Shown here: positions 2,354 through 56,563 of the stretch, in pieces
Layout: every line of letters starts with the position of its first letter
Numbering within the stretch: the stretch's first letter is position 1
Virus record (IMG/VR): IMGVR_UViG_3300033977_000049
Location: 1-64,000 of that record
DNA from: a virus
Reading direction: 5' to 3' (one strand)
Length of the DNA stretch: 64,000 bases
Position numbers and translations under genes: made by a program
Notes under the pieces: generated by a model
The model's database searches: none
Seen by the model: only the letters and a program-made list of their open reading frames with translations
Told to the model about the DNA's origin: nothing

Positions 2354-2920
2354 ATGAATGATATCAATCATCGGGATATATGGGAATATATAACTGCCAA
2401 AGAATTAGAATCCGGCATTGTCAGATTAAGCGATGATATACAATCATGTAGCCTCCATGATTTTTCAAAAACATATAATTACCTATTAAGTAAGAAAATG
2501 AAATATGCTCAATTAATAATTACCAGTCCGGGGGGTGGTGCATATCATGCATTTGCTATGTATGATATATTGAAAATGGCTGAAAATAAAGGACTTATAA
2601 CAACTGGATTGGTAGAGGGATTTGCCGCTAGCGCAGCGTCTATGATTGTTCTTCAGGGATGTAAACATAGGCTATCCACTCCACTTGCTAGGCTACACCT
2701 TCATGAAGTTCAGCAATGGGTTTTCTTGGATGTACAAACCGCCTCTGATGTACAGGATAGGGCAAAGGAAATGAAAGTTTTAATGGATATGATTGTAAAA
2801 ATCTTGTCTGAAAGAACTGGTAGGTCAGCAACAGAACTTTTAGAATTTATCCAGCGCCGGGAAAGGTGGATGTCGGCTAAAGAAGCATTAGAATATGGAT
2901 TGATTGATGAGATTATTTAG
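2354..2920 (+). CDS. clpP: ClpP-family serine protease
   Basis: ITSPGG, AASAAS (catalytic Ser), LHE, and WMSAKEALEYGLIDEI C-terminal signature. Confidence 0.85.
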   Translation: MNDINHRDIWEYITAKELESGIVRLSDDIQSCSLHDFSKTYNYLLSKKMKYAQLIITSPGGGAYHAFAMYDILKMAENKGLITTGLVEGFAASAASMIVLQGCKHRLSTPLARLHLHEVQQWVFLDVQTASDVQDRAKEMKVLMDMIVKILSERTGRSATELLEFIQRRERWMSAKEALEYGLIDEII

Positions 2921-17877: not shown

Positions 17878-20800
17878 TTACTCTTCTTCCCAAGGCCTTG
17901 ATCCGGGGAACGTCCTAAGAATCCATTGATAAGTTGGATCTGCTTTTCTTTCAGCCGGGGTCATTTTCTTTAATGCCTTCGTCTGGTAAGCCTTTTTCTT
18001 TTGTAGCATTAAGGCCGAAAGAGATGTTTTTTCAGAACTAGTCATTAAATCCCACACTTGTAAAAAATCCGGCATGGCTAGCCTACTACATCTGAGATAT
18101 AGCCTAGCTAATGCCGGGTCCATACCTCCTGTAGTTCTAATTTCTTTTACAATACGCTTAGCTTCATCAAGCGGAATCTGCCCATCTTCAACCATTTGAT
18201 GTAAATCTTGTTGGCTTATTTCGCCCTTACGAAGTTGATCTTCATATTCCAACATTAATTGATGTTTGCGAAGGGCGGCTTCATCCACTGGACCTTCTTC
18301 AGTTCTATTAGTAGCTAATTGTATGGCCTTACTTTCAGCCTCAGATCTTAATGGAGTAGGAATAATTCCAGCACCCCTTAATCCCTGTTGCCAACTAGGA
18401 ATTTCGGCAGGCATTTCACCCGCTGCGGATTTGCCTATATATTGCAGTGAAATGGGCATAACATTACGGACCACATCCATAGTTTGCTGCCATGGGGTTA
18501 ATTTTCTGCCTAAAGCATCTCTGCCACTATATAAGCTGGTAGCCATGCGCATAGTAGGACTTGCCCGACCACGCATAAAGCCAACCGGATCATCAGCCAT
18601 ATGAAACATATCGCCCGGCAAGGTCCGCATACTCCAAACTTTTTTATGGCCTTCTTTATCTTCTGTAACTATGCCAAATGGAGCTTCTGGATGCGCCTGT
18701 CCGTTATTTACAAGCATATTGACGGCCCTAGCGGTTACCCACATTGCGCCTACAAAATAAGCCATATCGCGGCGTAATAATTTCCCCCCGGTGGGATCGA
18801 ATAATCTTTTGACTAAGCGGACTTCAGATTCCAGCCAATCTGGAGCTAGAGTAACCAAGCGGAACCAATCTTGAGTACCAACAGATCTTCCCATATCTCG
18901 GTAATTCAATCCACCAAATCTTTCATTGGTTTCGATAGCCGCTGCCCTTGCCGCTGCCCTGATTGGATCAAGGCCAGAAAAATCAGGATGGGCCTGTAAA
19001 TATCGCTCATATAATTTTGGATCTTTGGCAAATCTTTCTCGCCATTCCCCAAATAATTTTTTCCCCACCATGGCTTTAAGGCTAGGCATTAATCTTTCAA
19101 AAGTAAATTCTTGTAGCCAATTTTGCGCATCGCGTATTCCAGGCATTTTTCTTAACAATATACTTTTAGTCCCGCTAGCCGATAATCCTTCGCTAAAGTC
19201 TGATTCTGCCTGGAATCGATGGCCTAATGTCATTGACTGTTCAACTAACATAGCTAGGTCTGGATCTGTTTTTAAATCCCACTTAACTAGTCTTGGTATT
19301 ACACCACTCATAAGGGAACGCAATCCAAGTTGACTGATATGAAAGGGTGATAATGATAATAGAATTTGTTTAAATTGTGTTCCTAATCCTAATACAGCCC
19401 GGCCAACAGCGCTTCCGCGCAGCGGAGATTGTTCGAGTCCTAATCTGCGAGTCACATATTGATAAACATCGGGATGAACCCTTACATCACCCTTAACTAA
19501 GACTGGAGTTCCATCAGGCGCATAAGCAGCCCAATTCCAATGCCTAAAGGCTGGATGGTCAATGGTCATGTAATCATGTGTATTATAGAGATATATTGGA
19601 TCGCCTTTTGGACGCTGAAGCGTGGCATCTAAAGGATCTTTAGGCGGTGGATTATCTGGTACTCCGGTTAATCTTTGTGTCTTATCTTCTATGGCGGGAG
19701 GCAATGCCATTTCTTCTCCGGATATAGGCCCACCCTTTTCTTGAAGTAATATATTTTCTTTATTGGCCCTATTTATTAATTTCCTTGTAATATCTTTTAT
19801 AGTACCATGATAATGATTATATTGCCTATCCTCCCATTCTTCTAGTGGTATTTCTCTTAAAACAGATATATATATATCTGAATTATCTGGAGATGCCGGT
19901 AGTCTATTTAAAGTATCTAGAGCGGATTGATAACTAGATGTTTCAATGTTCCATTGTTTATAATCGGGTGCATTATCTGATTTCCAAGATCTAATTCTAA
20001 TATAACCCCTGTCTATTGCTTTATTGCTAGCCTCCTCTCCAGTTCCAAATCGTTCGGGTAATATATCTGGATGTTCAGATCCTTCTGGTAATTCTTTGAA
20101 TTTTCCAGATGGAGAAATCCATCCACTTCCGGTAATGGATTCTTGAATGCCCATTCTTTGAAATAGTAATTTAGGAGGTTTTGTTGGAAAATCCACAAAT
20201 CCCTTTGGTTCTTTATAGTTATACCGACCCGAATATCCTGCCGCCCTTAAAGCATTATCTACTCTATCTTGAACATATCTAGGATCGATCAATTCTACTC
20301 TGGCAAGTTCTCTGGCAATATATGCAAGATGGTTGGTATCATTATTAGCTGCTGTTTTTTGGATATTTTTTAAATCTTCGGGTCTGGATTTTTCAGCCAT
20401 TTTCAAAATATGCCTTAACGAATCTGCATAGATTTCTGGATCTTTTATAATAGCATCATTATGCCGAAGTCGCATTTGCCTAAACCATTCATTCATTGGC
20501 ATTGGATGATCCCATAGCAAGGCAGCGCCATCTTTTACAGCTTGATCCCGTTCATCCCATGCCGGAGATTCTTGAAATAAAGCTGTAGGATTAGAAGGTA
20601 TATTTTCTATAGATCGTGGAGTTGAATATGCTTCTGTATTTAATTCATTAGAAATCCTACCATGAATATTATGTTCACCCATCATGCCATATCGCAATGC
20701 TCGAATGGCATCAATAGGATCGCTAGTGATAAATGGTTTTGATTTGCCGCTGAAAATGCTGAACGATTCGGCATCTCCGAATCTTTCCTGGATGGCCCTA

Positions 20801-23800
20801 GCAATAGCATTTTTCGCGGCTATATCAAATTTCCCAGCTTCAAACCAATATCCATTTCCATTCTTGCCAAATTTTATAGCTCCCTTTTCCAAGGCGCTGT
20901 CAACTGTATCTCCCAATCCATATTTCAGCATGGATGATAATTTCAAATTTTGTTCGTGAGTGCTAAATTTTCTTATTGGAATTATATCGTTTCCAATAAT
21001 CCAACCCTGTTCATACGGCTTGCGCGTTATTGGCTTGGGGATTTCGGCTCTAAGGCGTAAGATACTGTCGGCTTTGGCTGCCCTGTTTTTTTCGAGATCG
21101 GTTCTGTAATCCTGGATGCGTGTGGCAATATCTTGCAAAGTCTTAATATCAGGTTTTTCAACTGAGCCTTCCTCGATTCTTGTGACTGCATCTTTTGCTG
21201 CGCGTTCTGCGTTCTCAATAACGCCTGGATCAATTCCTGCTCCTGTGAGGGCATCTCTTACCTCCTTATCGGTTGCTAAAAGTTCTACTAAATCTGTGGT
21301 CTGTGCTTTTAATTCTTTTTGCCATATATCCGGACTGGATTCCATTTGTTTAACAATAAAATCTAATGGCTTGCTACTCGCTGTATCCAATCCACTTAAT
21401 TCCGCTAGGGTTCTCATAAATATCCATACTGAGGCCTGCGCTTGTGATGGAGTCCAGTTTAAATCCTTGGCTATGTTTCTTAATTGAGCTTGATATAACA
21501 AATATTCATGAGGCCTGCCTTGATAATCAAACGGTTTTTGGCCCTTAAACAATTGCATCCATGTATCAATTGTAGCTCGATGGTTATTGCCCATTAAATT
21601 AGCGAAGAAGGCAGAAACTTTTGGCCCTGAAAGATCACTCCATTCCGATAGGGTTGACATAATATTGTCCGGGACTTTATATGGTCGTGGTTCTCCGGTG
21701 CGATAATCTCTATAATCATCATAATATTCAGAACCGGCTAGATCTGTTCCAATTTTTTGAGATTCAATTGCCCTGCCATGCGCTATATCAGTAATTGATT
21801 TTCTGTCCGCTGGCCTTCCTTTATCATTCCAATCTCCCCATATCTGCAAAGCCTGGATAAGGTCCGTTTTTACAGCCTTACGGGGAGAAATGGCAGCAAG
21901 TAATTTAGTAAAAATTGGAAAATCTTCCGGATTGAATATTTTTTGGAATCCAGCTAAATATCTATCATACCAGAAACGGCCTCCTGCGCCCACTAATGCG
22001 GCAGCTTTTAATTGTTCGGGCATTGCTTTATCGGCGGTATCTGCTGCCAAATATAATTTTTGATAATGCGGTGACAGTTTATTCCATTCCCATTGGTCAA
22101 TACCTGAAGGCGTGGGAGTCTGTTGTTTTCCATATCTTTCCGCTCCATGGGATTCATCAATTAAATCCTGGGCATGTTTATAAATCTCACCCATTGCATG
22201 ATGCAAGCGGGGATCTATTTCTTCGGCCAACTTTCTAGAATACAAGGCATATCTTTCCCTGGCTTCGTTGACGATTTTTTCTAAAGGCGAGGCGGATTCA
22301 TGCAAGGTGGTAATATCAATATCTGGGGCTAGTTGAAGTAAAAATTCCGCTCCTTTAGTTGCGGCAGCATGCAATTTGTCAGTACTTATAGCTGGAAGTC
22401 TACGTTTTAAAGATTCTGGCATGCTGTTAAGCATTTGGCTTGCCAATCCATAAAGCTTGCCAGCAAAATTTCTTAACATTGTAGTATCTGCCCAGCTTTT
22501 TTCTAGGGCATTTTCATCAAAATCAGCCTCGGATGCGGTGGTAAGTTTTTTGGCTAATTCAGTTCCCTCATATACTGCTGTGTTATAAATATTGGCATGG
22601 GAGATATTATCCGCATTCTTTTGCAACCAATCCACGGTACGAGCCATAGATTCGGCTGTTTCTCCCGGAAGTCCGATCATGATGTTGGGAATCAGGGCAA
22701 TATCCGCTTCCTTTAGCCTGGCGGCTGCCTTATCAATTAACTGCTCTGTAGCTGGTTTGTGCAATTCTTTCAATAGATCATTATTATAAGTTTCTACTCC
22801 GATTTCCGCAAAGCGGATACCAGATTTCTTTAACCAATCAATGGAAAATTTATTTGCTTGCGCGGCTGTGGTTTGTATAATGAATCCGCCAAAATCGGGA
22901 TTAATATCCTTGATGCGGTTATAAAGTTCCGGAAGCATTTCATAATTGGGAGCTTGCCCAAATGTTTTGTCGTTCAGATATACCAATCTCGAACCTAGCT
23001 TGCCAATAGCATCGGCCTGTTGATTAATAGCTTCTGGAGATGGCATTTCAATGCGTTTTTCTATCGTACAAAAGGCGCATTTATGTAGGCATCCAGTAGA
23101 CATGGTAAGGCGAGGAATAACATCCTGGCCAGATTCTTTGAAGTGGCGATAGTCCACGCCTTCTTTATACGGCACGCCCATGTCACGGGCTAGGCTTGCC
23201 ATATTATCATGCCATTTTACATTAGGTAAATCTTTAAAGAATTCCGCTCCACCGCTATATCCGCCAACATCTATATGGCCTTTATAGGCAGATGCTATAT
23301 TACGGATCATATCTCTATTAACATCTAGTGCTGAAAATGCTATTCTTCCATATCCGGCCTTACTCAAAAAATCTTTAGCTTCCGATAAACTACGGATCAC
23401 ATATGCATCAGCATCGGGAATAAAATTAGAAGCAAATCCCATCCACTGCGGAATCTCCCAAAAATCATCTAGGCGTTTATATCCCGGCCTGCTACCATCA
23501 TATAATTTATCATAATAACGGCTTTCCATAACCTCTTCCGGCAATCGAGGTTCGCTTGATTCTGGGTTAATTAGCTTATTGGATATTTGAACGAGCAATG
23601 TTCTATGAGCATTGCCGGTTTCTCGCGCTCCCTTGCCCGTGTCTACGGATCTACGTATCCAGGGGTTTCCGGTATCAGCAGATGCTTCCTTATAGGTATA
23701 ATTGGGATTGGAAATATCGCTTCCATCAATATTTAGAAGCTTTAGATCTGGCAACCCCTCCCTGGATCTTATTTCTTCGGCACTTAAAGGAATATTAGCT

Positions 23801-26800
23801 AAATCAATTGAATCTTTTCCTTGCAGGAGAGTATCATTTGGTCTAGCCAGCTTTCTCATTGCCTGTTTACGAAAACCAAATTCCGAATCGTTAGCTTCGG
23901 CAAGATTTCTATAAGCCAAATGTCCATAACCCTCTCGATCAACATTCCAGTCAATTCCAATAGGGCTATTAGGATGAGTTTTTAATCTAGTTAAGGCATC
24001 GGAAACTTGCTCAATTGTATTAGGATTGAGTCGCCCAAATTGAATACCTACAAATCCAGCATGTTGATCGCCTGGATTCATAATACGGATTAATCCTGCA
24101 TTAAATGCATCTTCATAGTCTGTATATCCATGCTCTGTCAACCATTCAGGATGCCCAAGGGGAACCGTTTCAGATCGGCCATCGGGAAAGATAAATGAAG
24201 ATCCCTCAACCGGGCCTAATATTATGCTAGGGCGCTTTCCTTTTATATCCACTCCAGCTTCTTCCCGAACTTTATCCTTCATTTGCAGGAGAACATTAAA
24301 TTGTTGCTGTTCAAATTTCCTGCCTTGTTCTTTTCTCATTTCCCCAAGGCGATCTTCGGGATTAGGCCATGCCGCGTCCCCTGGTTTTATACCGGTTCCA
24401 CCGGTGGAAATAAATGGATAATTTTTACCATCAAGATGTACGATTCCCTGCTGGTTATATTTTTTCCCCAGCATCATAGCTTGCCCTATATCCGGCACAG
24501 TTACACTAACTTCCATTATCCATTGTTTAGCATCTTTATCATACCAAACTCCTACGTTATTAGAAGGATCGCGCAATAATCCTATTATTTTAGGGCTAGC
24601 AATAAACCCCTGCACTTCTTTAGCAGTAGGTTTATGATCTAATTTAATTGTATATTCATTTTCGGGATAGATACTAACTGCATATTCTCCCGAAACTCCC
24701 ATATTACCGCGATATAAATTAAAGGTAGCTCCATTATTAGCCTGAACTAAATCAGAAATAGCTTCATGGGGATTTAATATTTCTTTTCTAGGTCTACCTA
24801 TGCGTCCGAATATTTCTTCAAGAAAAGGAGGTAGTGGGATCTTAAGCATTTGGGCAGATGGATTTCTTAGGCCATCATATATATCTCTCATCCACCGCTT
24901 GAACTTAGCAAATACCCCTGCCATTTCCGGTACATAAGTTCTACCGGTAATTAAATGAGATTCCAAAGCTCTTGCAGTTTTTTCTTCAGCATCAACAGTC
25001 CATGTTCCGTTTTTCACTCCAGCCCAATTTTCTAATATCCTTAAATCTTCTTCCGGTAGCCCTCTCCGGAAAACGTGGAACATTTCATGCACAAGCGTAC
25101 TAAAATCGGCCCCTTGCATAGCGCGTATAATCACCTTGCCATCATTCTGAAAATCGGCCATGCCTTTTACACCGGCCCATCTTTCTCTAGGTATGCCAGC
25201 AGCCCTTAAATGCTCTTCAGTCCCTCGTTCAAATCCTTCTAATCCTCTTTCCCTCCAATATTCTTCTAGTGACACCCCTCGCATGCGAGCAAAGGCGCGA
25301 GCCAAGGAAATTCCACCCTCCACTTGTTCATCTGTTAATCCCATTCCCCAGGCATCTTTAATTTGCTGTCTAAATTTATCTGTAACAGGTTCCAGTCCAA
25401 CCGTTTCTTGTAATAATGGCTTTTCTACTTTAGGAACCGCTTCTTCTGGGGGAGCTAATTTAGGAAATCTGACAACAATATCACCATTTTTAATGGCCTT
25501 ATCTAATGTTCCTTCTTTTCTCCTAGCTTCGATTTCCTTAGCGGCAATGCGAATATCTCTAATTCTACGTCCGTCAATCAAAAGAAATGGATTTTCACCA
25601 TTAGGCATTTCCACAACTTTTCCGGAACCGGAATAGGCTGCTATTGGCCTGCCATCTGAAGTTTTATTACCGCGATCAATCATATCGGCTACAAATTCAC
25701 GAGCCGCAATAGCCTCTCCCAAACGGGCTTTATAATTAGCCATTAATTCAATAGGATCGGTTATAAGAAGTTTTTTACCCAAAAGCATGCCCAGCACTGT
25801 ATCATCTATAATACGATGATTCAGCATGGAAATATTAGTATGAAATTCTGAATAGTTTCTTATTTCATGCACAAAACGATTAACTGCCTGATTATCGGTA
25901 TCTTTACCCCAAATACGAGTAATATAATCTTCGATAAAAGGTATGTGTATATCATGCAGGGCCGCATTTGCTAAATCCGCTGCAAATTCATTTTCAGACA
26001 ATTTTGCCAATTCCCGAATACGGGCAGTAGGATTAATTGATTTTTCATATATCTTGATTATTCTATCAATTTCTTCTGGAGTATATTTTGTTGATACTAA
26101 ACGACGCCCCGCAACCTCCAGTTTTCTTTTATCCATTTCTTCATGAATAGAAGTCAGGTCCGGCCTAATATCAGTCCGTCCCATTTCTAGCACAGGAATG
26201 TGTTCAAATCCTAAATCTTTATAGGCTTGCAAAGCATATCTTCCATTAACGCCAACAATATTACCTTCCGCATCTCGATAAATTTCAATCGGATCTATCG
26301 GCCTTCCCGCTCTAATGCGATGAATAACAGTATCAATATTCTTTTGGGCTTCTTCTCTAAGCTCTGGAGACATGCCTTGACGTATATCAAGGCTTCCAGA
26401 TGTTGCCATAAGCGTAGCATCAACAGATTTAAGAATAGGCTCTTGATTAGCCCTAGCGTTTGGATCGTAAATTTCAGCGCGGGGCCTTAATCTTTCTGTG
26501 TCTTCGGCGGTAGCCCTTCCAGCCGATTCTTTGAATAAACTTAAATCTCTCTGAAGAGCTTCTTTATCTTCTCCTCTATCCCTTAAAAGAAAGGCAGCAA
26601 ATCTATCTTCAGGATTTACATCTTTAAATGTTTTGTTTTTATCAGCCCTAAATAAATCCGCCGTTCGATTTACTTCGGTAACTTTTCTATCAAATTCACC
26701 ACCCATCTGTCGTGTTTTTTGAGCTTCCTCGCTAGGTATTAAATTTTGAATTCCAAATTTTTCTGCTAATGCTCCCACTTCTGGCCTTAAATGAGCGCGA

Positions 26801-27900
26801 GCTTGAAATCCTGCTGCCACTCCTAGTCCTATATTACCCAAAATAGAAGGTGCCATTTCAAGTGCTTGTGCCGGATCTTCAGAAAGAGCCTTTCTAAATT
26901 GAGGATATTGGTATATCGCTCCCAATATCATATTTGTACTAAAACCTAAATCAGTTAACCCCTGTATGGTTTTTGCAATAGTATCAGCCTTGGTTAATGG
27001 CATTCTAGCGCTACGAAGTATAGCGCCAAGTCCATTAATAATCAGTCCGCGATTTCTTAAATCGGAAAGATCAAGCCCTATCCTTCTTAGCCAATATCTT
27101 CCTTCTGTAAATAAGCGAGGATTAATGCCAGCCGATGAAAGAGCTTCTGGAACGCTTCTTCCTAAAGACATGGCTTTTTCAGCTATTTGTGCTCCACGGG
27201 CGATTTCTCCTATTTCATCATTTGTAAATAATCTAGCGGCAGCGGCAACTCCCTGCTTGCCTAGCGCTTCAATGGTTTCTTTACTGGCAGCACCAGCCGC
27301 TACATCTCTAAGCGCTGCCTCTCCAGCCGCCGTACCCAATCCACCTCCCCAGGTTCCTATAGTCAATGCGAGCATAGCAGGAGCGGTTTGAGAATATAGC
27401 AAATCTGTAATAAATCTACCCACACCTCCCACAAGTGCTCCAGTATATTTCCCGGCAGCCTCTCCAGCAAAAGTGCTAACAGCTTCTTTAGTGGATTCTC
27501 CGATCTCTTTAGCCCATCTTCCTCCTTCATATTTTAATACATCTGGTAATCCCAAGGCATCAACTATTTGATTGCCCTTAGGTTCCCAAATCCAATCCCA
27601 CATAGATCTGATAACGCCTTCTTTATCTCGCTGGGAAGTGGCAGGTGGGGCTATAGCCGGTTCGGTAGAAACTGGAGTTGAACTGATCGGAATTAATCCT
27701 AATTCCTCTGGGCTTTTGTAACCAATGGATTCTTTTGTTATAGAAGTTAATGGTGTTAGCCCAAGTTCTTCAGGAGATTTATAAGTAGTAGGAAATCGCC
27801 CTGCTATAGGCGGTGCTACTGGCATGGGAGATTTAGCTTTTGTTGCTACGGGAATTAATCCAAGCTCTTCCGGCGATTTGTAAATATCTTGATCTGCCAT
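17878..27900 (-). CDS. Giant (3340 aa) internal virion/ejection protein of large-polyvalent-protein type
   Basis: Last gene of the structural arm; contains degenerate ParB-like, HExxH metallopeptidase, SAM-lyase-like, CxxxCxxC radical SAM and glycosylase-like segments. Confidence 0.8.
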   Translation of the reverse strand: MADQDIYKSPEELGLIPVATKAKSPMPVAPPIAGRFPTTYKSPEELGLTPLTSITKESIGYKSPEELGLIPISSTPVSTEPAIAPPATSQRDKEGVIRSMWDWIWEPKGNQIVDALGLPDVLKYEGGRWAKEIGESTKEAVSTFAGEAAGKYTGALVGGVGRFITDLLYSQTAPAMLALTIGTWGGGLGTAAGEAALRDVAAGAASKETIEALGKQGVAAAARLFTNDEIGEIARGAQIAEKAMSLGRSVPEALSSAGINPRLFTEGRYWLRRIGLDLSDLRNRGLIINGLGAILRSARMPLTKADTIAKTIQGLTDLGFSTNMILGAIYQYPQFRKALSEDPAQALEMAPSILGNIGLGVAAGFQARAHLRPEVGALAEKFGIQNLIPSEEAQKTRQMGGEFDRKVTEVNRTADLFRADKNKTFKDVNPEDRFAAFLLRDRGEDKEALQRDLSLFKESAGRATAEDTERLRPRAEIYDPNARANQEPILKSVDATLMATSGSLDIRQGMSPELREEAQKNIDTVIHRIRAGRPIDPIEIYRDAEGNIVGVNGRYALQAYKDLGFEHIPVLEMGRTDIRPDLTSIHEEMDKRKLEVAGRRLVSTKYTPEEIDRIIKIYEKSINPTARIRELAKLSENEFAADLANAALHDIHIPFIEDYITRIWGKDTDNQAVNRFVHEIRNYSEFHTNISMLNHRIIDDTVLGMLLGKKLLITDPIELMANYKARLGEAIAAREFVADMIDRGNKTSDGRPIAAYSGSGKVVEMPNGENPFLLIDGRRIRDIRIAAKEIEARRKEGTLDKAIKNGDIVVRFPKLAPPEEAVPKVEKPLLQETVGLEPVTDKFRQQIKDAWGMGLTDEQVEGGISLARAFARMRGVSLEEYWRERGLEGFERGTEEHLRAAGIPRERWAGVKGMADFQNDGKVIIRAMQGADFSTLVHEMFHVFRRGLPEEDLRILENWAGVKNGTWTVDAEEKTARALESHLITGRTYVPEMAGVFAKFKRWMRDIYDGLRNPSAQMLKIPLPPFLEEIFGRIGRPRKEILNPHEAISDLVQANNGATFNLYRGNMGVSGEYAVSIYPENEYTIKLDHKPTAKEVQGFIASPKIIGLLRDPSNNVGVWYDKDAKQWIMEVSVTVPDIGQAMMLGKKYNQQGIVHLDGKNYPFISTGGTGIKPGDAAWPNPEDRLGEMRKEQGRKFEQQQFNVLLQMKDKVREEAGVDIKGKRPSIILGPVEGSSFIFPDGRSETVPLGHPEWLTEHGYTDYEDAFNAGLIRIMNPGDQHAGFVGIQFGRLNPNTIEQVSDALTRLKTHPNSPIGIDWNVDREGYGHLAYRNLAEANDSEFGFRKQAMRKLARPNDTLLQGKDSIDLANIPLSAEEIRSREGLPDLKLLNIDGSDISNPNYTYKEASADTGNPWIRRSVDTGKGARETGNAHRTLLVQISNKLINPESSEPRLPEEVMESRYYDKLYDGSRPGYKRLDDFWEIPQWMGFASNFIPDADAYVIRSLSEAKDFLSKAGYGRIAFSALDVNRDMIRNIASAYKGHIDVGGYSGGAEFFKDLPNVKWHDNMASLARDMGVPYKEGVDYRHFKESGQDVIPRLTMSTGCLHKCAFCTIEKRIEMPSPEAINQQADAIGKLGSRLVYLNDKTFGQAPNYEMLPELYNRIKDINPDFGGFIIQTTAAQANKFSIDWLKKSGIRFAEIGVETYNNDLLKELHKPATEQLIDKAAARLKEADIALIPNIMIGLPGETAESMARTVDWLQKNADNISHANIYNTAVYEGTELAKKLTTASEADFDENALEKSWADTTMLRNFAGKLYGLASQMLNSMPESLKRRLPAISTDKLHAAATKGAEFLLQLAPDIDITTLHESASPLEKIVNEARERYALYSRKLAEEIDPRLHHAMGEIYKHAQDLIDESHGAERYGKQQTPTPSGIDQWEWNKLSPHYQKLYLAADTADKAMPEQLKAAALVGAGGRFWYDRYLAGFQKIFNPEDFPIFTKLLAAISPRKAVKTDLIQALQIWGDWNDKGRPADRKSITDIAHGRAIESQKIGTDLAGSEYYDDYRDYRTGEPRPYKVPDNIMSTLSEWSDLSGPKVSAFFANLMGNNHRATIDTWMQLFKGQKPFDYQGRPHEYLLYQAQLRNIAKDLNWTPSQAQASVWIFMRTLAELSGLDTASSKPLDFIVKQMESSPDIWQKELKAQTTDLVELLATDKEVRDALTGAGIDPGVIENAERAAKDAVTRIEEGSVEKPDIKTLQDIATRIQDYRTDLEKNRAAKADSILRLRAEIPKPITRKPYEQGWIIGNDIIPIRKFSTHEQNLKLSSMLKYGLGDTVDSALEKGAIKFGKNGNGYWFEAGKFDIAAKNAIARAIQERFGDAESFSIFSGKSKPFITSDPIDAIRALRYGMMGEHNIHGRISNELNTEAYSTPRSIENIPSNPTALFQESPAWDERDQAVKDGAALLWDHPMPMNEWFRQMRLRHNDAIIKDPEIYADSLRHILKMAEKSRPEDLKNIQKTAANNDTNHLAYIARELARVELIDPRYVQDRVDNALRAAGYSGRYNYKEPKGFVDFPTKPPKLLFQRMGIQESITGSGWISPSGKFKELPEGSEHPDILPERFGTGEEASNKAIDRGYIRIRSWKSDNAPDYKQWNIETSSYQSALDTLNRLPASPDNSDIYISVLREIPLEEWEDRQYNHYHGTIKDITRKLINRANKENILLQEKGGPISGEEMALPPAIEDKTQRLTGVPDNPPPKDPLDATLQRPKGDPIYLYNTHDYMTIDHPAFRHWNWAAYAPDGTPVLVKGDVRVHPDVYQYVTRRLGLEQSPLRGSAVGRAVLGLGTQFKQILLSLSPFHISQLGLRSLMSGVIPRLVKWDLKTDPDLAMLVEQSMTLGHRFQAESDFSEGLSASGTKSILLRKMPGIRDAQNWLQEFTFERLMPSLKAMVGKKLFGEWRERFAKDPKLYERYLQAHPDFSGLDPIRAAARAAAIETNERFGGLNYRDMGRSVGTQDWFRLVTLAPDWLESEVRLVKRLFDPTGGKLLRRDMAYFVGAMWVTARAVNMLVNNGQAHPEAPFGIVTEDKEGHKKVWSMRTLPGDMFHMADDPVGFMRGRASPTMRMATSLYSGRDALGRKLTPWQQTMDVVRNVMPISLQYIGKSAAGEMPAEIPSWQQGLRGAGIIPTPLRSEAESKAIQLATNRTEEGPVDEAALRKHQLMLEYEDQLRKGEISQQDLHQMVEDGQIPLDEAKRIVKEIRTTGGMDPALARLYLRCSRLAMPDFLQVWDLMTSSEKTSLSALMLQKKKAYQTKALKKMTPAERKADPTYQWILRTFPGSRPWEEE

Positions 27901-43286: not shown

Positions 43287-46200
43287 TTATTCTCGTCCGC
43301 TTAGACTTCCCCAAACGGAAAGGGTATAAAGCTCATTTCTTACGGCTTCCGCTGGAAATGCTATTTGCATTTGTATATGCCGACCAATAATTGGTACAGC
43401 GCCTTGCAAAAGATAAAACCTCTTACTCATAATCGAGGTACTAGGGGTTAAAATCGGAGGATCGCTTACGCTATTAGGAAGTGCTTCAAATGAAATGCGA
43501 GTTGGATTTAAATAATCATAAACCTCATCTAATATAACGCTAACGGTTGGAATGCTTCCTTTATTAGGCAATTCAACAGTAATACTTTCAATTTCCGCTA
43601 TCTGTCCCGGTTGGGCCAAAACCAAGCTACCAAGAATAATAGAACCAGTATATGTATTTCCTAAATCGGTAAATATTCCATTGGGTCCGGGAGGAGTTCT
43701 ATAGGCAACCATTGCCTGATTCGTGTATGAATTCCATACCCCAACTAATAATTGATGAACTCCAGGGGCGGTTTCGACAGAGCCGATAGATGTATAGCTC
43801 CATTGAGAATTATCGTATCCGGTTCCAGTATTTCCAGTTGCAGCAACTCCATTAGCATTGGTCACTGTGAATGTACTAGAGCCGATTGCCGTTACGGGAA
43901 ATGTTCCGTTATTACCAGCATTCGCCATGCCGATAACAGTAATGTTATCTCCAACTACTATAGCATTACCCGTTAAGCTGGTATAGGTATAAGTCCAAGA
44001 ACTTCCCGAACCTGACACCGTGGTTATGGTATTTATTATAGGACCAGCAAAAAATTTTGCCTTTGGACTCCACGCGGGTCCGCCTTCTGGAGGCTGATTC
44101 CAATTACACCTGTACCAAGTAGAACTTCCATCAGCAAGAAATACCGCTTTATCTGAACTTCCTGAAATCAATGATGCTACGTAAACTGTACTAGGATTAT
44201 ATGCCGGATCAATTTCCAGCCGATTACCAATTGCGAATCCATCCTCATTAATACCAGCAGCCGAAAATCTTATAAATTGGCGGTCGGCAGAATACAACCA
44301 AGTATTTACCCCATCTGCGGCAAGAGCATTATACGAACTAAGTCCAAGGCCCGTTAACATGGGCATGGGATACATGGATGCAAGAGTACTTCCGGCAATA
44401 TAATAAAGATCGGATTGAGTCCATACTAATAAGGCAGATGATGTGGGAACTAATCTATTGATTTGTGTTGGAAAGGTAAAATAATTTAATGGCGGAAATG
44501 CCTCTGAGCCATTTCCAACAAGGCAATCTGGACCAGCAGAATAATAAAGTAAATTGCCGACCGCTCCCCATATCCGCCCTAAATGATAAGCCATCTTAAC
44601 AATGCCAGATGGAGGAGGGTTGTTTACATAATTTACTGGTCCTGGTTGGGTTATTATAAGTGATATATCGGGAGAGTTATCTTCTATTTGTACCGTGCTT
44701 ACGCCCGGAGTCCATCCACTAGGCCAAAGAGTGGTGCAAAGATATGGAGAAGTTGGAATATTTAAAAATATTGATCCACCATCAGTAATACGAAATACCC
44801 AAATTTGATCTACCTGTGGATCGGTAGGGGCTAAAAGCGTTACCTTAACTCCCGTAGCATTTGTAAATATTCCCGTGCCCGTACTAGGAGGAGTGGTGGA
44901 AGAAACATGTCCACTTTTACTATTTCCATAAGCCGCAACATATTGATATCCAGTAAAGGCATTAAATGTTCCGGGCGTGGTATCAATAGATATAGGCGGA
45001 CCTCCGGTTGCCCATATAGTGATTTTAACCCAAGTAATATACCACGTTGCCAATCCCGTTCCTTGAGGATTAAATGCTTGAAGCGCTACACCAAATCCAA
45101 TTCCACCCACACTAGAAGCGGCGATATTTTGTATGCCCCAAAAATCTCCAGCCCCTCCTATGGAAATTGTACTCGAAGAAGTCCCTAACTGTACCGTTCT
45201 TACATTTCCGGTAGGCTGTCCGGCCAATAAAAGCTGAGCGGTTAAATAACATCCCGAAGGATTGCTTCCTTGATATCCATTTACCTGAACCTGAATTCCT
45301 TGCACGACAGATGGAGAAGTAATATTAAATCCAAAATTAGTTCCCTCTAATAAGTCGCTTTTATTAGACGATGGCAAGCTATAAGTAACCGCAATTTTAA
45401 TGGCATCTACTTCACCCACATTTGCTTGCGTTGCCGGATAACCAGTTGCGGTAACTATTAAACTTACTCCAAAGGCAGATGAATTAATAAGATCGGGAGT
45501 TAATGACGATCCCCATAAAACTCCATCGTAACTTCTCCAAGTCAAATTTCCGGGCCATGAATTGGGACTAACATCATATTGGGCATTACTAGATCCAACT
45601 CCCAAAAGTTGCAAAGAGCCATATAATCCGGGATATTGAGAAGTTTGATATTGAGCGGCACATTTTACCGATACTGTAACATCAATAATTTTTGCATATG
45701 AAGGTATGGTAAATCCAAATCCACTTGCCTGTAATGGGCTGGAGGTTGTTCCCGGCTGCATAGTAATAGTAGCACAATTTCCATCTTCGATTTCCACATA
45801 GAAAGGATTCTGCCATTCATTCATGTAATCAATGGCAGCGGTGGGAAATAAAGGCCCCACGACTTTTGAAGGAATAGACCCAACTGTTACTGTAGCGGGT
45901 CCGCCAGTTCCGGTAGTAATACTACCATAAGCGAACCAAGGAACTCCATTACCAAAACTATAATTAGACCCATTGCTAATAACTACATTACCGGCTCCAG
46001 AATTTACAATAGATACTATAAATGGGCTGCTAGGAGATCCCAGCAAAGGCATTGTTACTGCCACGCCGGATGCGTTATTACAAATAATATAAGTACCATT
46101 ATCATTGCTTTGAATTGTATAAGTTGATCCAGTTACAGGGGAATTTGGGCTTTGTGTGGTAGTCAAAACCTGACCGGACTGATAATGAAGATTAGTTCCG

Positions 46201-46850
46201 TCACAATAAAGCGTTACAGTATCGTTAGTGCGAAGCGTAATACTTAATACTCCTGCCGCTGATACATCAGCCGCAGTACCCGGCAGGGAAGGCCCAGATG
46301 GTCCGGAAAACGGACCAATAGAAATACCCCAATTTCTTACTCCCTGTGTGATTCCGCTTACATTAGGGTCGCACCATGCTAAGGCGCGAGAGCCGGTACC
46401 CATATAGAGCACATTTCCCACGCCTTGAAAATAACATTGATTATTAATTTCGGAAGCTTGTTTGGAAAAAATTTGGGTAGATAACGAAGGGGTAATGACA
46501 TCTACTTCCACCGCCGTATCCACTATTACATCAAACGGATTGGGGATAGAAGCTATTTGGCGGAAGGAATAAAAACTTTTGATTTGTGCGGATAGGCTTG
46601 CAGTAGAATAAGGGGCTAATCCAGGACGGCGAATATATGTACCATAATTAGTCAACTCCATATTCGAGCCGTCAACCAACATGTCAGTGCGGACGCCATA
46701 GAATCTGGTATAATACCTACTGTCGGGTCCGTTGAAAGGACTGCGATTAGTCCAAAGGCCAGAGAAGAAATGCTGTGTGGACAGGGGTATAAAATGAGTC
46801 GCGTTTTTAGGTTGAGCGCCAGAAGACTGAAGCAGTCCTGGATCTGCCAT
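43287..46850 (-). CDS. Tail nozzle/stabilisation protein (tubular protein B-like)
   Basis: FSGLWT...N..LT..G...RRPG start, MAYHLGRIW...LYYS propeller motifs, inserted beta-sandwich domains. Confidence 0.7.
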   Translation of the reverse strand: MADPGLLQSSGAQPKNATHFIPLSTQHFFSGLWTNRSPFNGPDSRYYTRFYGVRTDMLVDGSNMELTNYGTYIRRPGLAPYSTASLSAQIKSFYSFRQIASIPNPFDVIVDTAVEVDVITPSLSTQIFSKQASEINNQCYFQGVGNVLYMGTGSRALAWCDPNVSGITQGVRNWGISIGPFSGPSGPSLPGTAADVSAAGVLSITLRTNDTVTLYCDGTNLHYQSGQVLTTTQSPNSPVTGSTYTIQSNDNGTYIICNNASGVAVTMPLLGSPSSPFIVSIVNSGAGNVVISNGSNYSFGNGVPWFAYGSITTGTGGPATVTVGSIPSKVVGPLFPTAAIDYMNEWQNPFYVEIEDGNCATITMQPGTTSSPLQASGFGFTIPSYAKIIDVTVSVKCAAQYQTSQYPGLYGSLQLLGVGSSNAQYDVSPNSWPGNLTWRSYDGVLWGSSLTPDLINSSAFGVSLIVTATGYPATQANVGEVDAIKIAVTYSLPSSNKSDLLEGTNFGFNITSPSVVQGIQVQVNGYQGSNPSGCYLTAQLLLAGQPTGNVRTVQLGTSSSTISIGGAGDFWGIQNIAASSVGGIGFGVALQAFNPQGTGLATWYITWVKITIWATGGPPISIDTTPGTFNAFTGYQYVAAYGNSKSGHVSSTTPPSTGTGIFTNATGVKVTLLAPTDPQVDQIWVFRITDGGSIFLNIPTSPYLCTTLWPSGWTPGVSTVQIEDNSPDISLIITQPGPVNYVNNPPPSGIVKMAYHLGRIWGAVGNLLYYSAGPDCLVGNGSEAFPPLNYFTFPTQINRLVPTSSALLVWTQSDLYYIAGSTLASMYPMPMLTGLGLSSYNALAADGVNTWLYSADRQFIRFSAAGINEDGFAIGNRLEIDPAYNPSTVYVASLISGSSDKAVFLADGSSTWYRCNWNQPPEGGPAWSPKAKFFAGPIINTITTVSGSGSSWTYTYTSLTGNAIVVGDNITVIGMANAGNNGTFPVTAIGSSTFTVTNANGVAATGNTGTGYDNSQWSYTSIGSVETAPGVHQLLVGVWNSYTNQAMVAYRTPPGPNGIFTDLGNTYTGSIILGSLVLAQPGQIAEIESITVELPNKGSIPTVSVILDEVYDYLNPTRISFEALPNSVSDPPILTPSTSIMSKRFYLLQGAVPIIGRHIQMQIAFPAEAVRNELYTLSVWGSLSGRE

Positions 46851-54564: not shown

Positions 54565-56563
54565 TTAAGGAGCGACAGCTTCAATCCTACGCAGAGTCAT
54601 AACGGAGCCGGGTCGCAATGTGTTAGTATATTTCACATTATATGAAACCCAACCACCAATTTGACGGGCAGGATCGGAAACGGAACCACTAGCTGGTGCC
54701 TCTTGGATCATGAGGCGGTAATTTTTCTCACCAGTTGTGGGGTTTTTACCCAAGAACACACTGAATATAGCGTCATCACCAAATACATATGTGATATATT
54801 TGGGAACGCCATCCACGGTCGGCGTGGGGCAAGTCGTGGTTTGCTTGAAGCGGCATCCGGCAAATTCGATCACTTCATCATCAGTGAGAGGAGAGAACAA
54901 TTTGCGGACGGTACTTTCATTGCGCTTCAAAATGTCAGTCAATCCATTGTTAGTTGTGTCGTTAAGAATATCCTCAACAACATAAGGATGAATAATGCCT
55001 CCCCAATAACCATCTTTGGTTAGGGGGCGAGCATTAACGCCCTTAAGAGACTGAGTAGCAGCACGGATAGTCGATGCGGTAACGAGTGCACCACCAGTAA
55101 GGTCGATGTTTACATTACCATCAACCGCCGCAGCAGCATCAGCCGTCAACTGAACAAGGGTATTAAGAGACAGTGCCAACCGGTAATTCAGTTCGGTAGC
55201 CAAATTTTGGAGCAGAGACGGATCATCAATTGCCACGTCCATCGCTAGATCGGAACTGTTAATAAAATCACAATATTGTCCGATTGTGGCGACTATCTTT
55301 GACGTAGACTCTGAGATCGGAGATCCAACTGAACCTTCACTAGCAGGTTGAGTGTTAGCACCAAATAGCGAATAAGTGAAGAATTGGATCTGGTTCCCGG
55401 CATGGAGCGGAAGGGGCTTCTGCTTAGTCATAAGCAAGAAGGGCGTTTCCGCTTTCAGGTTTGGGCAAATGTGTTTAGGCTTTAATTATCACTAATAAAG
55501 CGCTCTACATGTTACCATGTAGTTCGGACTCTATCTTAACTTCCAAAGAAGTTTCCGGCGTATTAGTCTCTGGGGATAATGGCTGATAAAGTTTTTGGAA
55601 TTGTTGATATAAATCTTCTCTAGCTTCCTGATTTACTTTACTATCTAAACGTATAAATTGTAAAATCAAGTTTGCTTCTTGTTTTTTTAATATTAAATAT
55701 GGCAATATTGCCAGTAGAAGATTTTCTTGAATTTCATTCCCGAATATAGTCCATCGGAAAGCAGGTATATAATTTTCATTTGCAGAATGTTTTGGTTTAA
55801 ATATTCCACCAAAATGTAAAACTAAATATTCCATTAATGCCCTACTGCAATTAGTAATATTTATAACCTTGTGATAGCAATAGCCATTGGCATTATATTG
55901 TTTAGTTTTAATTATTCTTAAAGAACCCTCGCCATCGATTAATGCTGCAAGGTAGGAAAAATCTGATTTTGTATTATGCATTAATCCAATAGATTTCGAT
56001 GACCCGCTATTTAATATCTTACTTTTAAAATAAAAATTTTCACGTATATCGGGAATGATTTTATTTCCTAAATCAATAAAAGAAAGACATAATTTTGCCT
56101 GTTCTTTTTTAATGATAAGGGAATCTAAAACAGATAGTAACAGAGACTTTATCCTCTCTTTACCACCATGCGGTTCCCAATTAAAAGATCTTGTTCCGGG
56201 TTTAAAGGAACCGCCAAAATGCTTTATTAGGTAATTCATTAACCTTTTATCTTTATTAGATACGCTAAGATTAATAGAATATCCCCAATAGCCTTTTTGA
56301 TTTTTACAGCGATAGACACCAATATTGCCTTCTCCGTCAATTAATCCCGCAAGATAAGCATAATGTCTATCTTTTCTAGCCATTCTTTCCTCCGTCTAGT
56401 CCTCCCACAATCATTATAACATATTTTTTAAAAAATATGTGGATTTTGACGGATATAGCCGAATTTAAAGGCGACCAAATTTTATCGCCTGACGCTCATA
56501 GAAAATGGCAACCAAGTTCGGGAATGTTCCCGAAGTTAACACCGAAGCAGGAGTATAACTCAT
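54565..56563 (-). CDS. Major capsid protein, N4-gp56 family; spliced, exons 56563-56484 and 55465-54565 (326 aa)
   Basis: Joined exons read MSYTPASVLTSGTFPNLVAIFYERQAI/PNLKAETPFLLMTKQKPLPLHAGNQIQF; motifs EG..G, QY.DF...SD, IIHP, DP..Q.G. Confidence 0.88.
55466..56483 (-). mobile_element. Group I self-splicing intron
   Basis: 5' exon ends in U; P1 GGCGAU/GUCGCC with U.G wobble; R element CAGAGACUA; S element AAGAUAGAGUCC; terminal omega-G; splicing restores the frame. Confidence 0.9.
55505..56383 (-). CDS. Intron-encoded double-motif LAGLIDADG homing endonuclease
   Basis: YLAGLIDGEG and YLAALIDGEG motifs; ORF runs through the P7 core. Confidence 0.92.
   Translation of the reverse strand: MARKDRHYAYLAGLIDGEGNIGVYRCKNQKGYWGYSINLSVSNKDKRLMNYLIKHFGGSFKPGTRSFNWEPHGGKERIKSLLLSVLDSLIIKKEQAKLCLSFIDLGNKIIPDIRENFYFKSKILNSGSSKSIGLMHNTKSDFSYLAALIDGEGSLRIIKTKQYNANGYCYHKVINITNCSRALMEYLVLHFGGIFKPKHSANENYIPAFRWTIFGNEIQENLLLAILPYLILKKQEANLILQFIRLDSKVNQEAREDLYQQFQKLYQPLSPETNTPETSLEVKIESELHGNM

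Follow-up and report, generated by a model that had tools for sequence, protein, structure and literature searches.

A recurrent L-[F/Y/L]-Q peptide at module ends of a giant phage protein with an embedded zincin

The window analysed here is a 64,000-nucleotide stretch of viral DNA (positions 1 to 64,000 of the IMG/VR record IMGVR_UViG_3300033977_000049) from an uncultured phage; the record is 88 kb in length and has an estimated completeness of 89%. The virion module of this genome is podovirus-like, with terminase, portal, capsid, SU10-type adaptors, collagen-like fibres and glycosyltransferases, and the final gene of this minus-strand structural operon is a giant open reading frame (ORF; 17878–27900, minus strand) that encodes P0001, a protein of 3340 amino acids (aa). 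We find that P0001 consists of modules that can be delimited by homology and that a short peptide, L-[F/Y/L]-Q, recurs at the ends of such modules in P0001 and its relatives. Comparisons with related and independent proteins support a statistical tie between this peptide and the zincin-like metallopeptidase embedded in P0001, for which it is a candidate cleavage site. P- and L-numbers denote the relatives and loci that were compared with P0001.

A conserved carrier and its cargo

Three conserved modules frame P0001, all features of which lie on the minus strand. Module A (aa 159–423; 26632–27426) is N-terminal and is found in at least 40 family members by all-versus-all BLAST. Module B (aa 591–817; 25450–26130) was identified by BLAST against the module-C family, and module C (aa 2754–3337; 17890–19641), the last ~580 residues, matches 1386 proteins from a library of 1.8 billion at a cut-off of E ≤ 1e-3. 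It is C-terminal in all 1386 matches, in proteins of 557–3715 aa, and contains one weakly hydrophobic segment (aa 3046–3064). A single-sequence scan of IMG/VR with module C gave no match, and an alignment-based scan gave matches where the single-sequence scan did not. Minimal family members are made up of A, B and C, with B directly adjoining C (in P0013, B ends at residue 772 and C starts at 778); P0001 therefore carries an insert of ~1,940 aa (aa 818–2753), here called the cargo.

The cargo modules were defined by homology, in agreement with the modular protein proposed in a preliminary description of this DNA. The zincin-like metallopeptidase (MPTase) core spans aa 902–1038 (24787–25197) and has its HEMFH signature at aa 938–942 (25075–25089), where it had previously been placed. 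It is followed by module S1b (aa 1043–1190; 24331–24774), which is common to P0008, P0009, P0011, P0157 and L005; the earlier label 'SAM-lyase-like' for this segment found no match in PDB-profile or Pfam searches. The radical SAM module (aa 1379–1840; 22381–23766) was correctly recognized (Pfam PF04055, E 2.9e-14); it is common to P0002-4, P0033 and P0157 and has weak PDB matches to TM_1862 and ELP3. The DUF7178 module (aa 1887–2278; 21067–22242) matches Pfam PF23802 and has 28 homologous stretches; the suggestion that part of it is glycosylase-like gained no support from Pfam, PDB-sequence or Foldseek searches. Next come module S4b (aa 2284–2444; 20569–21051) and a small helical module, S5 (aa 2446–2553; 20242–20565), for which AlphaFold predicts helices with a predicted local distance difference test score (pLDDT) of 64–85.

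Two of the segments first described as unknown modules are copies of a single repeated domain, X. Copy 1 (aa 1211–1361; 23818–24270) lies between S1b and the radical SAM module and is homologous to stretches of P0008, which has two copies, and of L005, which has one; copy 2 (aa 2585–2722; 19735–20148) lies between S5 and module C and matches copy 1 with a BLASTP E value of 0.006 and the X domain of L005 with 1e-5. The domain is ~140 aa in length and has the pattern G-S-[SG]-[FW]-I-x-P-x-G ... H-P ... G-[LY]-I-R-I. No stand-alone homologue was found for it, nor any known fold, and it is clear only in zincin-bearing proteins. S4b was considered as a third X copy and rejected: hhalign against a profile that excluded S4b gave E 0.23, and a prior match by hidden Markov model was circular.

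Two further features lie in the N-terminal part of P0001. Residues 7–72 (27685–27882, minus strand) contain three repeats of YKSPEELGL[IT]P, and P0009 has S-I-F-x-x-L-G-I repeats in the same place. Between modules A and B, a ParB-like stretch (RIRAGRPIDPIEIY...GRYALQAYKDLGFEHIPV) occupies ~aa 520–577 (26170–26340, minus strand); P0009 has a Pfam ParBc match.

P0001 belongs to the phage 'polyvalent protein' class, to which it adds a new carrier architecture and a candidate cleavage site. Iyer, Burroughs, Anand, de Souza and Aravind defined polyvalent proteins in 2017 as phage or plasmid polypeptides with two to fifteen functionally disparate domains (PMC5512222). In P0001, such domains comprise the zincin, radical SAM (PF04055), DUF7178, the ParB-like stretch, the repeated X domain and the carrier modules, in a phage virion context; the polyvalent-class Pfam families ART-PolyVal (PF18760), InPase (PF18823) and ParBc are present in family members and module-sharing relatives. 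Like the proteins of the 2017 study, P0001 is a giant phage protein of many domains in which unrelated enzymes share a chain with an HExxH...E metallopeptidase. It differs in its peptidase subfamily, for which Pfam has no model (zincin matches were sub-threshold only), and in its A–B–cargo–C carrier, of which megablast and tblastn searches of 50,697 GenBank phage records found no relative, module C being present in none.

L-[F/Y/L]-Q at module ends

As previously described, L[LF]Q occurs exactly seven times in P0001 (aa 829, 1204, 1358, 1854, 2441, 2579 and 2718), and the nucleotide coordinates were also correct. It is missing from the first 828 and last 620 aa, so that all seven copies fall inside the cargo, the first 12 aa past the end of module B and the last 34 aa ahead of module C. 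With an arrow marking the bond after Gln, motif 1 is PLLQ↓E (aa 829–831; 25408–25416). Motif 2, VLLQ↓M (aa 1204–1206; 24283–24291), lies in the 37-aa gap between S1b and X copy 1, and motif 3, TLLQ↓G (aa 1358; 23821–23829), is at the end of X copy 1. Motif 4, FLLQ↓L (aa 1854–1856; 22333–22341), separates the radical SAM and DUF7178 modules. Motif 5, ALFQ↓E (aa 2441; 20572–20580), ends S4b, motif 6, LLFQ↓R (aa 2579; 20158–20166), follows S5 and motif 7, ILLQ↓E (aa 2718; 19741–19749), ends X copy 2.

Each of the seven is thus in an inter-module gap or at the extreme end of a module, the ends having been defined independently by homology, which bears out the earlier claim that the motifs mark domain borders. 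The LYQ that had been noted inside a domain is at aa 2135, within the Pfam DUF7178 match (2079–2163). Codons differ among the seven sites; the repeat is therefore at the level of the protein, and a DNA-level repeat or recombination microhomology is ruled out. The composition of P0001 predicts 1.28 copies, within the one to two that had been estimated, and at least seven copies arose with P = 8e-4 in 5000 shuffles of the protein. In the other ORFs of the genome L[LF]Q shows no excess (13 versus 9.4 expected). An all-versus-all BLAST 'gap' test of linker placement was uninformative because long high-scoring segment pairs cross the linkers. The placement of the seven sites is beyond chance: they are confined to the cargo, they stand at homology-defined module ends and they recur at the same ends in relatives.

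Six near relatives share the peptidase of P0001: P0008, P0009, P0010, P0011, P0157 and L005. L[FY]Q occurs 21 times in these six proteins versus 4.4 expected (p 9e-9), and the ratio of observed to expected counts in family members without the zincin is 0.8 and 1.65. The preliminary description had given the motif as L-[L/F]-Q; it does recur in relatives, but the family-wide consensus is L-[F/Y]-Q and LLQ is the variant of this phage. Among the relatives the motif generalizes to [LFMV]-[FLY]-Q in polar, proline-rich surroundings, as in GQP-LFQ-EG, EET-LFQ-TR, PYT-LFQ-TG, EPA-FFQ-RG and VNE-MYQ-RA.

Module ends in these homologues are kept at the motif. The site after module B that is equivalent to motif 1 is MFQ↓E in P0011 and LFQ↓T in P0010, after S1b comes LFQ in P0011 and LYQ in L005, and a site (FYQ in P0009, LFQ in P0011 and MYQ in L005) precedes module C by 9–30 aa. 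All five X-domain copies end in LLQ, LFQ, LYQ or MYQ, and DTL[LF]Q at the end of the domain aligns between P0001 and P0008. Module S4 terminates exactly at ...LFQ in P0001, P0009 and P0157, with similarity ceasing past the Gln, and the junction ahead of S5 reads LFQ↓ES in P0001, VYQ↓ES in P0009 and LFQ↓TS in P0157. In L120, VYQ↓E stands directly after the radical SAM module. Exchange of cargo at the motif, which had been proposed as a check, is seen most directly between P0009 and P0157, in which a 140-aa ParB-like cassette is inserted exactly as ...LFQ↓[TGSTEK...KVYQ]↓(E/T)SGELTPEA.

Across all module-C proteins L[LF]Q is not enriched (98 versus 107). P0002, which shares the radical SAM module, has no L[LF]Q; its polar linkers instead contain seven copies of the tripeptide ERS (0.59 expected, p 3e-6), those at 1192 and 1664 flanking its radical SAM module, and ERS may be the junction peptide of another lineage.

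The junction motif also occurs near the N terminus of two proteins. P0011 (L003:10001-20203) starts MPDSNPLVSLFQ↓NAT, that is, ...LVSLFQ↓NA, and a virion protein of 1187 aa (43287–46850, minus strand) starts MADPGLLQ↓SSG. In both, the motif is 6–12 aa from the N terminus, a position that would suit the trimming of a short propeptide.

The peptidase alignment retrieved 35 further viral loci, and an independent set was formed from giant proteins on other viral contigs: 30 non-redundant carriers of this zincin, 84,405 aa in all. In an unbiased scan of this set, LFQ ranked 5th of 8,000 tripeptides (37 versus 11.6 expected, p 2e-9; 30 carriers). Only TPE, VHE, SPE and VFD ranked higher, and two of these motifs, VHE and VFD, belong to the peptidase domain itself. 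Away from the peptidase, L[FY]Q occurs 47 times versus 21.7 expected, the expectation being that for whole proteins. These counts, together with those from the near relatives, support a statistical tie between the motif and the zincin family. TPE is the most over-represented tripeptide in the MPTase-bearing giants L084–L118 (71 versus 17); it lies within (V/I)-T-P-E-M-[KR]-x-x-V-x-E-G-x-P-L-F-Q, a tail found repeatedly at the end of a conserved upstream domain.

The position of the motif is also recurrent in these proteins. A hydrophobic–hydrophobic–Gln peptide lies 25–60 aa before HExxH in 20 of 40 unique domains, typically 2–10 aa ahead of the first strand (for example, EGQPLFQ-GP-KGAIEF and ENLLFQ-RN-KGAVSF), and x-x-Q stands at that pre-strand position in ~31 of the 40. 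Many distal L[FY]Q copies close the conserved tails TPEM[KR]xxVxEGxP-LFQ or NxGTYDPxxPxI-L[FY]Q, and several bracket the peptidase on both sides. In the pooled flanks, the hydrophobic fraction is 0.09–0.18 at P9–P4 and P1'–P4' versus a background of 0.29, and Pro reaches 0.21 at P6 versus 0.05; by composition, these flanks look like exposed linkers.

The embedded peptidase and the predicted setting of the sites

In an alignment of 29 rows, H938, E939 and H942 of the peptidase are invariant and E973/E980 are nearly invariant. With an invariant HExxH and a downstream Glu, the peptidase looks active. An AlphaFold model of aa 800–1045 made with this alignment has a mean pLDDT of 74, with 86–95 in the peptidase core, which is composed of two strands plus helices; HEMFH lies in a helix (933–947) and further helices follow. 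Ahead of the core, aa 841–900 are predicted to form a helical subdomain and aa 806–834, including LLQ829, are coil with pLDDT < 50.

A second model covers aa 1830–2770 (14 rows) and has a mean pLDDT of 58. LFQ2441 is at the end of a stretch with pLDDT < 50 (aa 2376–2446), LFQ2579 is within another (aa 2565–2654), and LLQ1854 (pLDDT ~52) and LLQ2718 are at the ends of low-confidence helices that adjoin coil. None of the five modelled sites (829, 1854, 2441, 2579 and 2718) is in a region with pLDDT ≥ 70. The expectation that the motifs would lie in disordered linkers is therefore borne out to the extent that all five are in low-confidence or coil regions and none is in a confident core, the second model being poor.

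Structural comparison of the peptidase by VIA-align gave weak matches to anthrax lethal factor (1yqy, Z 4.0, 109 residues aligned), PPEP-2 (6fpc, Z 3.6, 20% identity) and PPEP-3 (9g0j, Z 3.4).

Proposed processing by the zincin and its alternatives

Taken together, the junctions have the consensus [P/G/E]-x-[T/A/P]-L-[F/Y/L]-Q, with E/R/T/K and then G/S after the Gln. We give an even chance to the reading that the embedded zincin cleaves at L-[F/Y/L]-Q. The conserved carrier (A and B at the N terminus and C at the C terminus) would then hold ~1,940 residues of exchangeable cargo: the zincin with S1b, the repeated X domain, the radical SAM enzyme, DUF7178 with S4b and the small helical domain. 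Cargo units would be joined by a short, exposed L-[F/Y/L]-Q peptide that the embedded zincin recognizes and cuts after the Gln to yield separate products. Cassettes would be gained and lost along with their C-terminal site, and the protein, to judge from the place of its gene at the end of the structural operon, would presumably be packaged and ejected. A wider proposal, which we regard as possible but hold more tentatively, is that giant phage proteins carry an uncharacterized M34-like subfamily of zincins with L-[F/Y/L]-Q as its fixed code, in a DNA-phage equivalent of 3C-type polyprotein processing. Effector cassettes, each a module with its C-terminal site, would be exchanged between phages, and any module placed between two sites would be released automatically as a separate protein. 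The same zincin may trim other virion proteins, such as the 1187-aa protein.

Several findings weigh against processing by the zincin, and some of them would also suit the view that the seven tripeptides are a functionless chance cluster, singled out in hindsight and aided by a duplicated domain. LLQ (5 versus 0.94) is outside the 12 most over-represented tripeptides of P0001, and 5% of shuffled proteins reach a best-tripeptide minimum p of 3e-5. As the pattern was picked post hoc, the count alone is not above chance after correction for multiple testing. Sites 1358 and 2718 are not fully independent because both end paralogous X copies, and LLQ1854 is not conserved: the aligned residues are ILH in P0157 and P0009 and VLQ in P0033. 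The wider zincin set shows no enrichment of LLQ (23 versus 27), the form that P0001 uses five times; P0001 therefore has a local variant. A chance cluster is nonetheless very doubtful, and already disfavoured, given the enrichment of L[FY]Q in the six relatives and the rank of LFQ in 30 unrelated zincin carriers, the modules that end exactly at the motif, the cassette indel bounded by it and the homology-defined position of all seven sites.

Other difficulties are specific to the proposed enzyme and its sites. P0157 has an intact HELSH and one clear site only, with ILH, NFEQ and PPRQ where others have sites; a mild excess of L[FY]Q (1.65-fold) exists even in members without the zincin; and P0001 has no site beside its own peptidase, the closest being 84 aa upstream. 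The flanks of the seven sites alone have the same hydropathy as the cargo average, the signal appearing only in pooled sets, and that the sites are not buried is weakly tested because of the poor second model. In VIA-align, rows that are not zincins stand among the zincin rows with equal Z, the zincin matches being weak (Z ≤ 4.0), and Foldseek found nothing at E ≤ 0.001 for either model and no zincin match for the peptidase model. For every member of the family, the case that the giant protein is cut is drawn from sequence and predicted structure.

The motif could instead be an element that is never cut. It might be a conserved cap or tail at the C terminus of modules, or it might bind the zincin, a chaperone or the inside of the capsid as a pseudo-substrate or tether, with P0001 working as one long chain. 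Several module types do carry the motif as part of a conserved C-terminal tail (the X domain and the two tails described above), its spacing of 2–10 aa from the first strand of the peptidase could mean that it belongs to the fold, and two of the P0001 sites are at predicted helix ends. There is also precedent, which counts against cleavage in general: peptidases of this kind occur in the virion RNA polymerase of phage N4, which is packaged uncut, and in the plasmid proteins ArdC and TraC1, which likewise travel intact (PMC5512222). We nevertheless consider an uncut element unlikely, although it is the alternative that we take most seriously. The same tripeptide is found in unrelated module types with nothing conserved past the Gln; the flanks are rich in Pro and Gly and have few hydrophobic residues; cassette indels fall precisely at the motif; and the motif of P0001 is not coupled to the peptidase domain, LLQ829 lying in a disordered stretch.

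Cutting by a different protease is a further alternative, and a candidate that the preliminary description overlooked is encoded in the window: a ClpP-like protease of 188 aa (2354–2920, plus strand; PF00574, E 1e-29; PHROG 94 'head maturation protease', E 1e-24), which counts against the zincin as the enzyme. This ClpP-like enzyme could act on capsid contents as a head-maturation protease does, or a host protease could cut the sites; the head proteases of T4 and phiKZ-like phages cut internal proteins at short motifs, and the copies of the motif near the N termini of P0011 and the 1187-aa protein suggest trimming in trans. The ClpP-like ORF is, however, in the plus-strand replication block, adjoining an exonuclease and far from the head genes, L[LF]Q has no excess outside the giant ORF, and ClpP-like genes were detected in none of the 29 other viral records that have this zincin and the LFQ grammar, including the complete 94-kb genome of the near relative L005. 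The S78 and S49 families of head proteases were each detected in 0 of 14 zincin-bearing viral records, 8 of which are at least 98% complete, and no chymotrypsin-fold (3C-like) protease was matched by Pfam or PHROG in P0001 or the scanned ORFs, small ORFs having been scanned in part. In these genomes nothing but the embedded zincin accompanies the motif, and we consider a different protease improbable, the ClpP-like enzyme being a rival candidate in this phage.

The putative processing by the zincin has partial parallels in known systems. The 3C and 3C-like proteases of RNA viruses cut after Gln, for example, at LFQ↓G. Here too, a short site separates functional units of a long chain, and hydrophobic residues precede a Gln in the putative P1 position; the candidate enzyme is a zinc metallopeptidase and the likeness is by analogy only. 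Among M34 zincins, anthrax lethal factor cuts the basic and hydrophobic N termini of MAP kinase kinases and the PPEPs cut Pro-Pro bonds. Lethal factor and PPEP-1/2/3 share HExxH and a downstream Glu with the P0001 peptidase, are small and highly site-specific and provide its best whole-domain structural matches; the similarity is weak, with no Foldseek match, and their specificities differ from L-[F/Y/L]-Q. In head maturation, T4 gp21 cuts at L/I-x-E and phiKZ-like gp175 at S/A/G-x-E. The resemblance would lie in the cutting of virion-internal cargo, whether before packaging or after it, at a short motif that recurs; those phages use a separate head protease that also cuts head proteins, whereas here the motif follows an embedded zincin in genomes without detectable head proteases. 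The phi24B protein gp47, a polyvalent protein of 2811 aa detected in virions by proteomics and proposed to be an ejection protein (bioRxiv 10.64898/2026.04.10.717836), is likewise a giant podovirus polyvalent protein with a metallopeptidase domain. Compared by description only, it differs in its domains (LPD1/5/38 and MuF-C), and no junction motif or processing is reported for it.

Iyer et al. predicted that zincin-like peptidases release the domains of polyvalent proteins by autoproteolysis and cited P1 DdrB as processed; they name no cleavage site, and the words 'LFQ' and 'linker' are absent from the paper (PMC5512222). The junction peptide and the exchange of cassettes together with their site are new observations. 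The 2017 prediction was hard to test without a site, and candidate bonds can now be given to the residue, seven of them in one protein, and dozens of unrelated proteins with the same peptidase share the consensus. If the sites are cut, borders defined by the motif could be used to annotate thousands of unannotated giant proteins from metagenomes, the swapping of injected effectors among phages would be explained by self-releasing cassettes, and the zincin and its motif would constitute a new pair of site-specific protease and tag.

Two observations suggest a host among the Acidobacteriota. The portal protein has its closest relative in Tunturiibacter phage Tunturi_3, an Acidobacteria phage (33% identity), and one family member of P0001 is contained in a Ca. 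Sulfotelmatobacter assembly. Elsewhere in the virion module, an ORF for an HNH endonuclease (55505–56383, minus strand) is wedged directly 5' of the major-capsid ORF (54565–55437, minus strand), which has a TTG start and a PHROG match that starts at profile position 55; the capsid gene at 54565–56383 may be interrupted, or its start may be miscalled.

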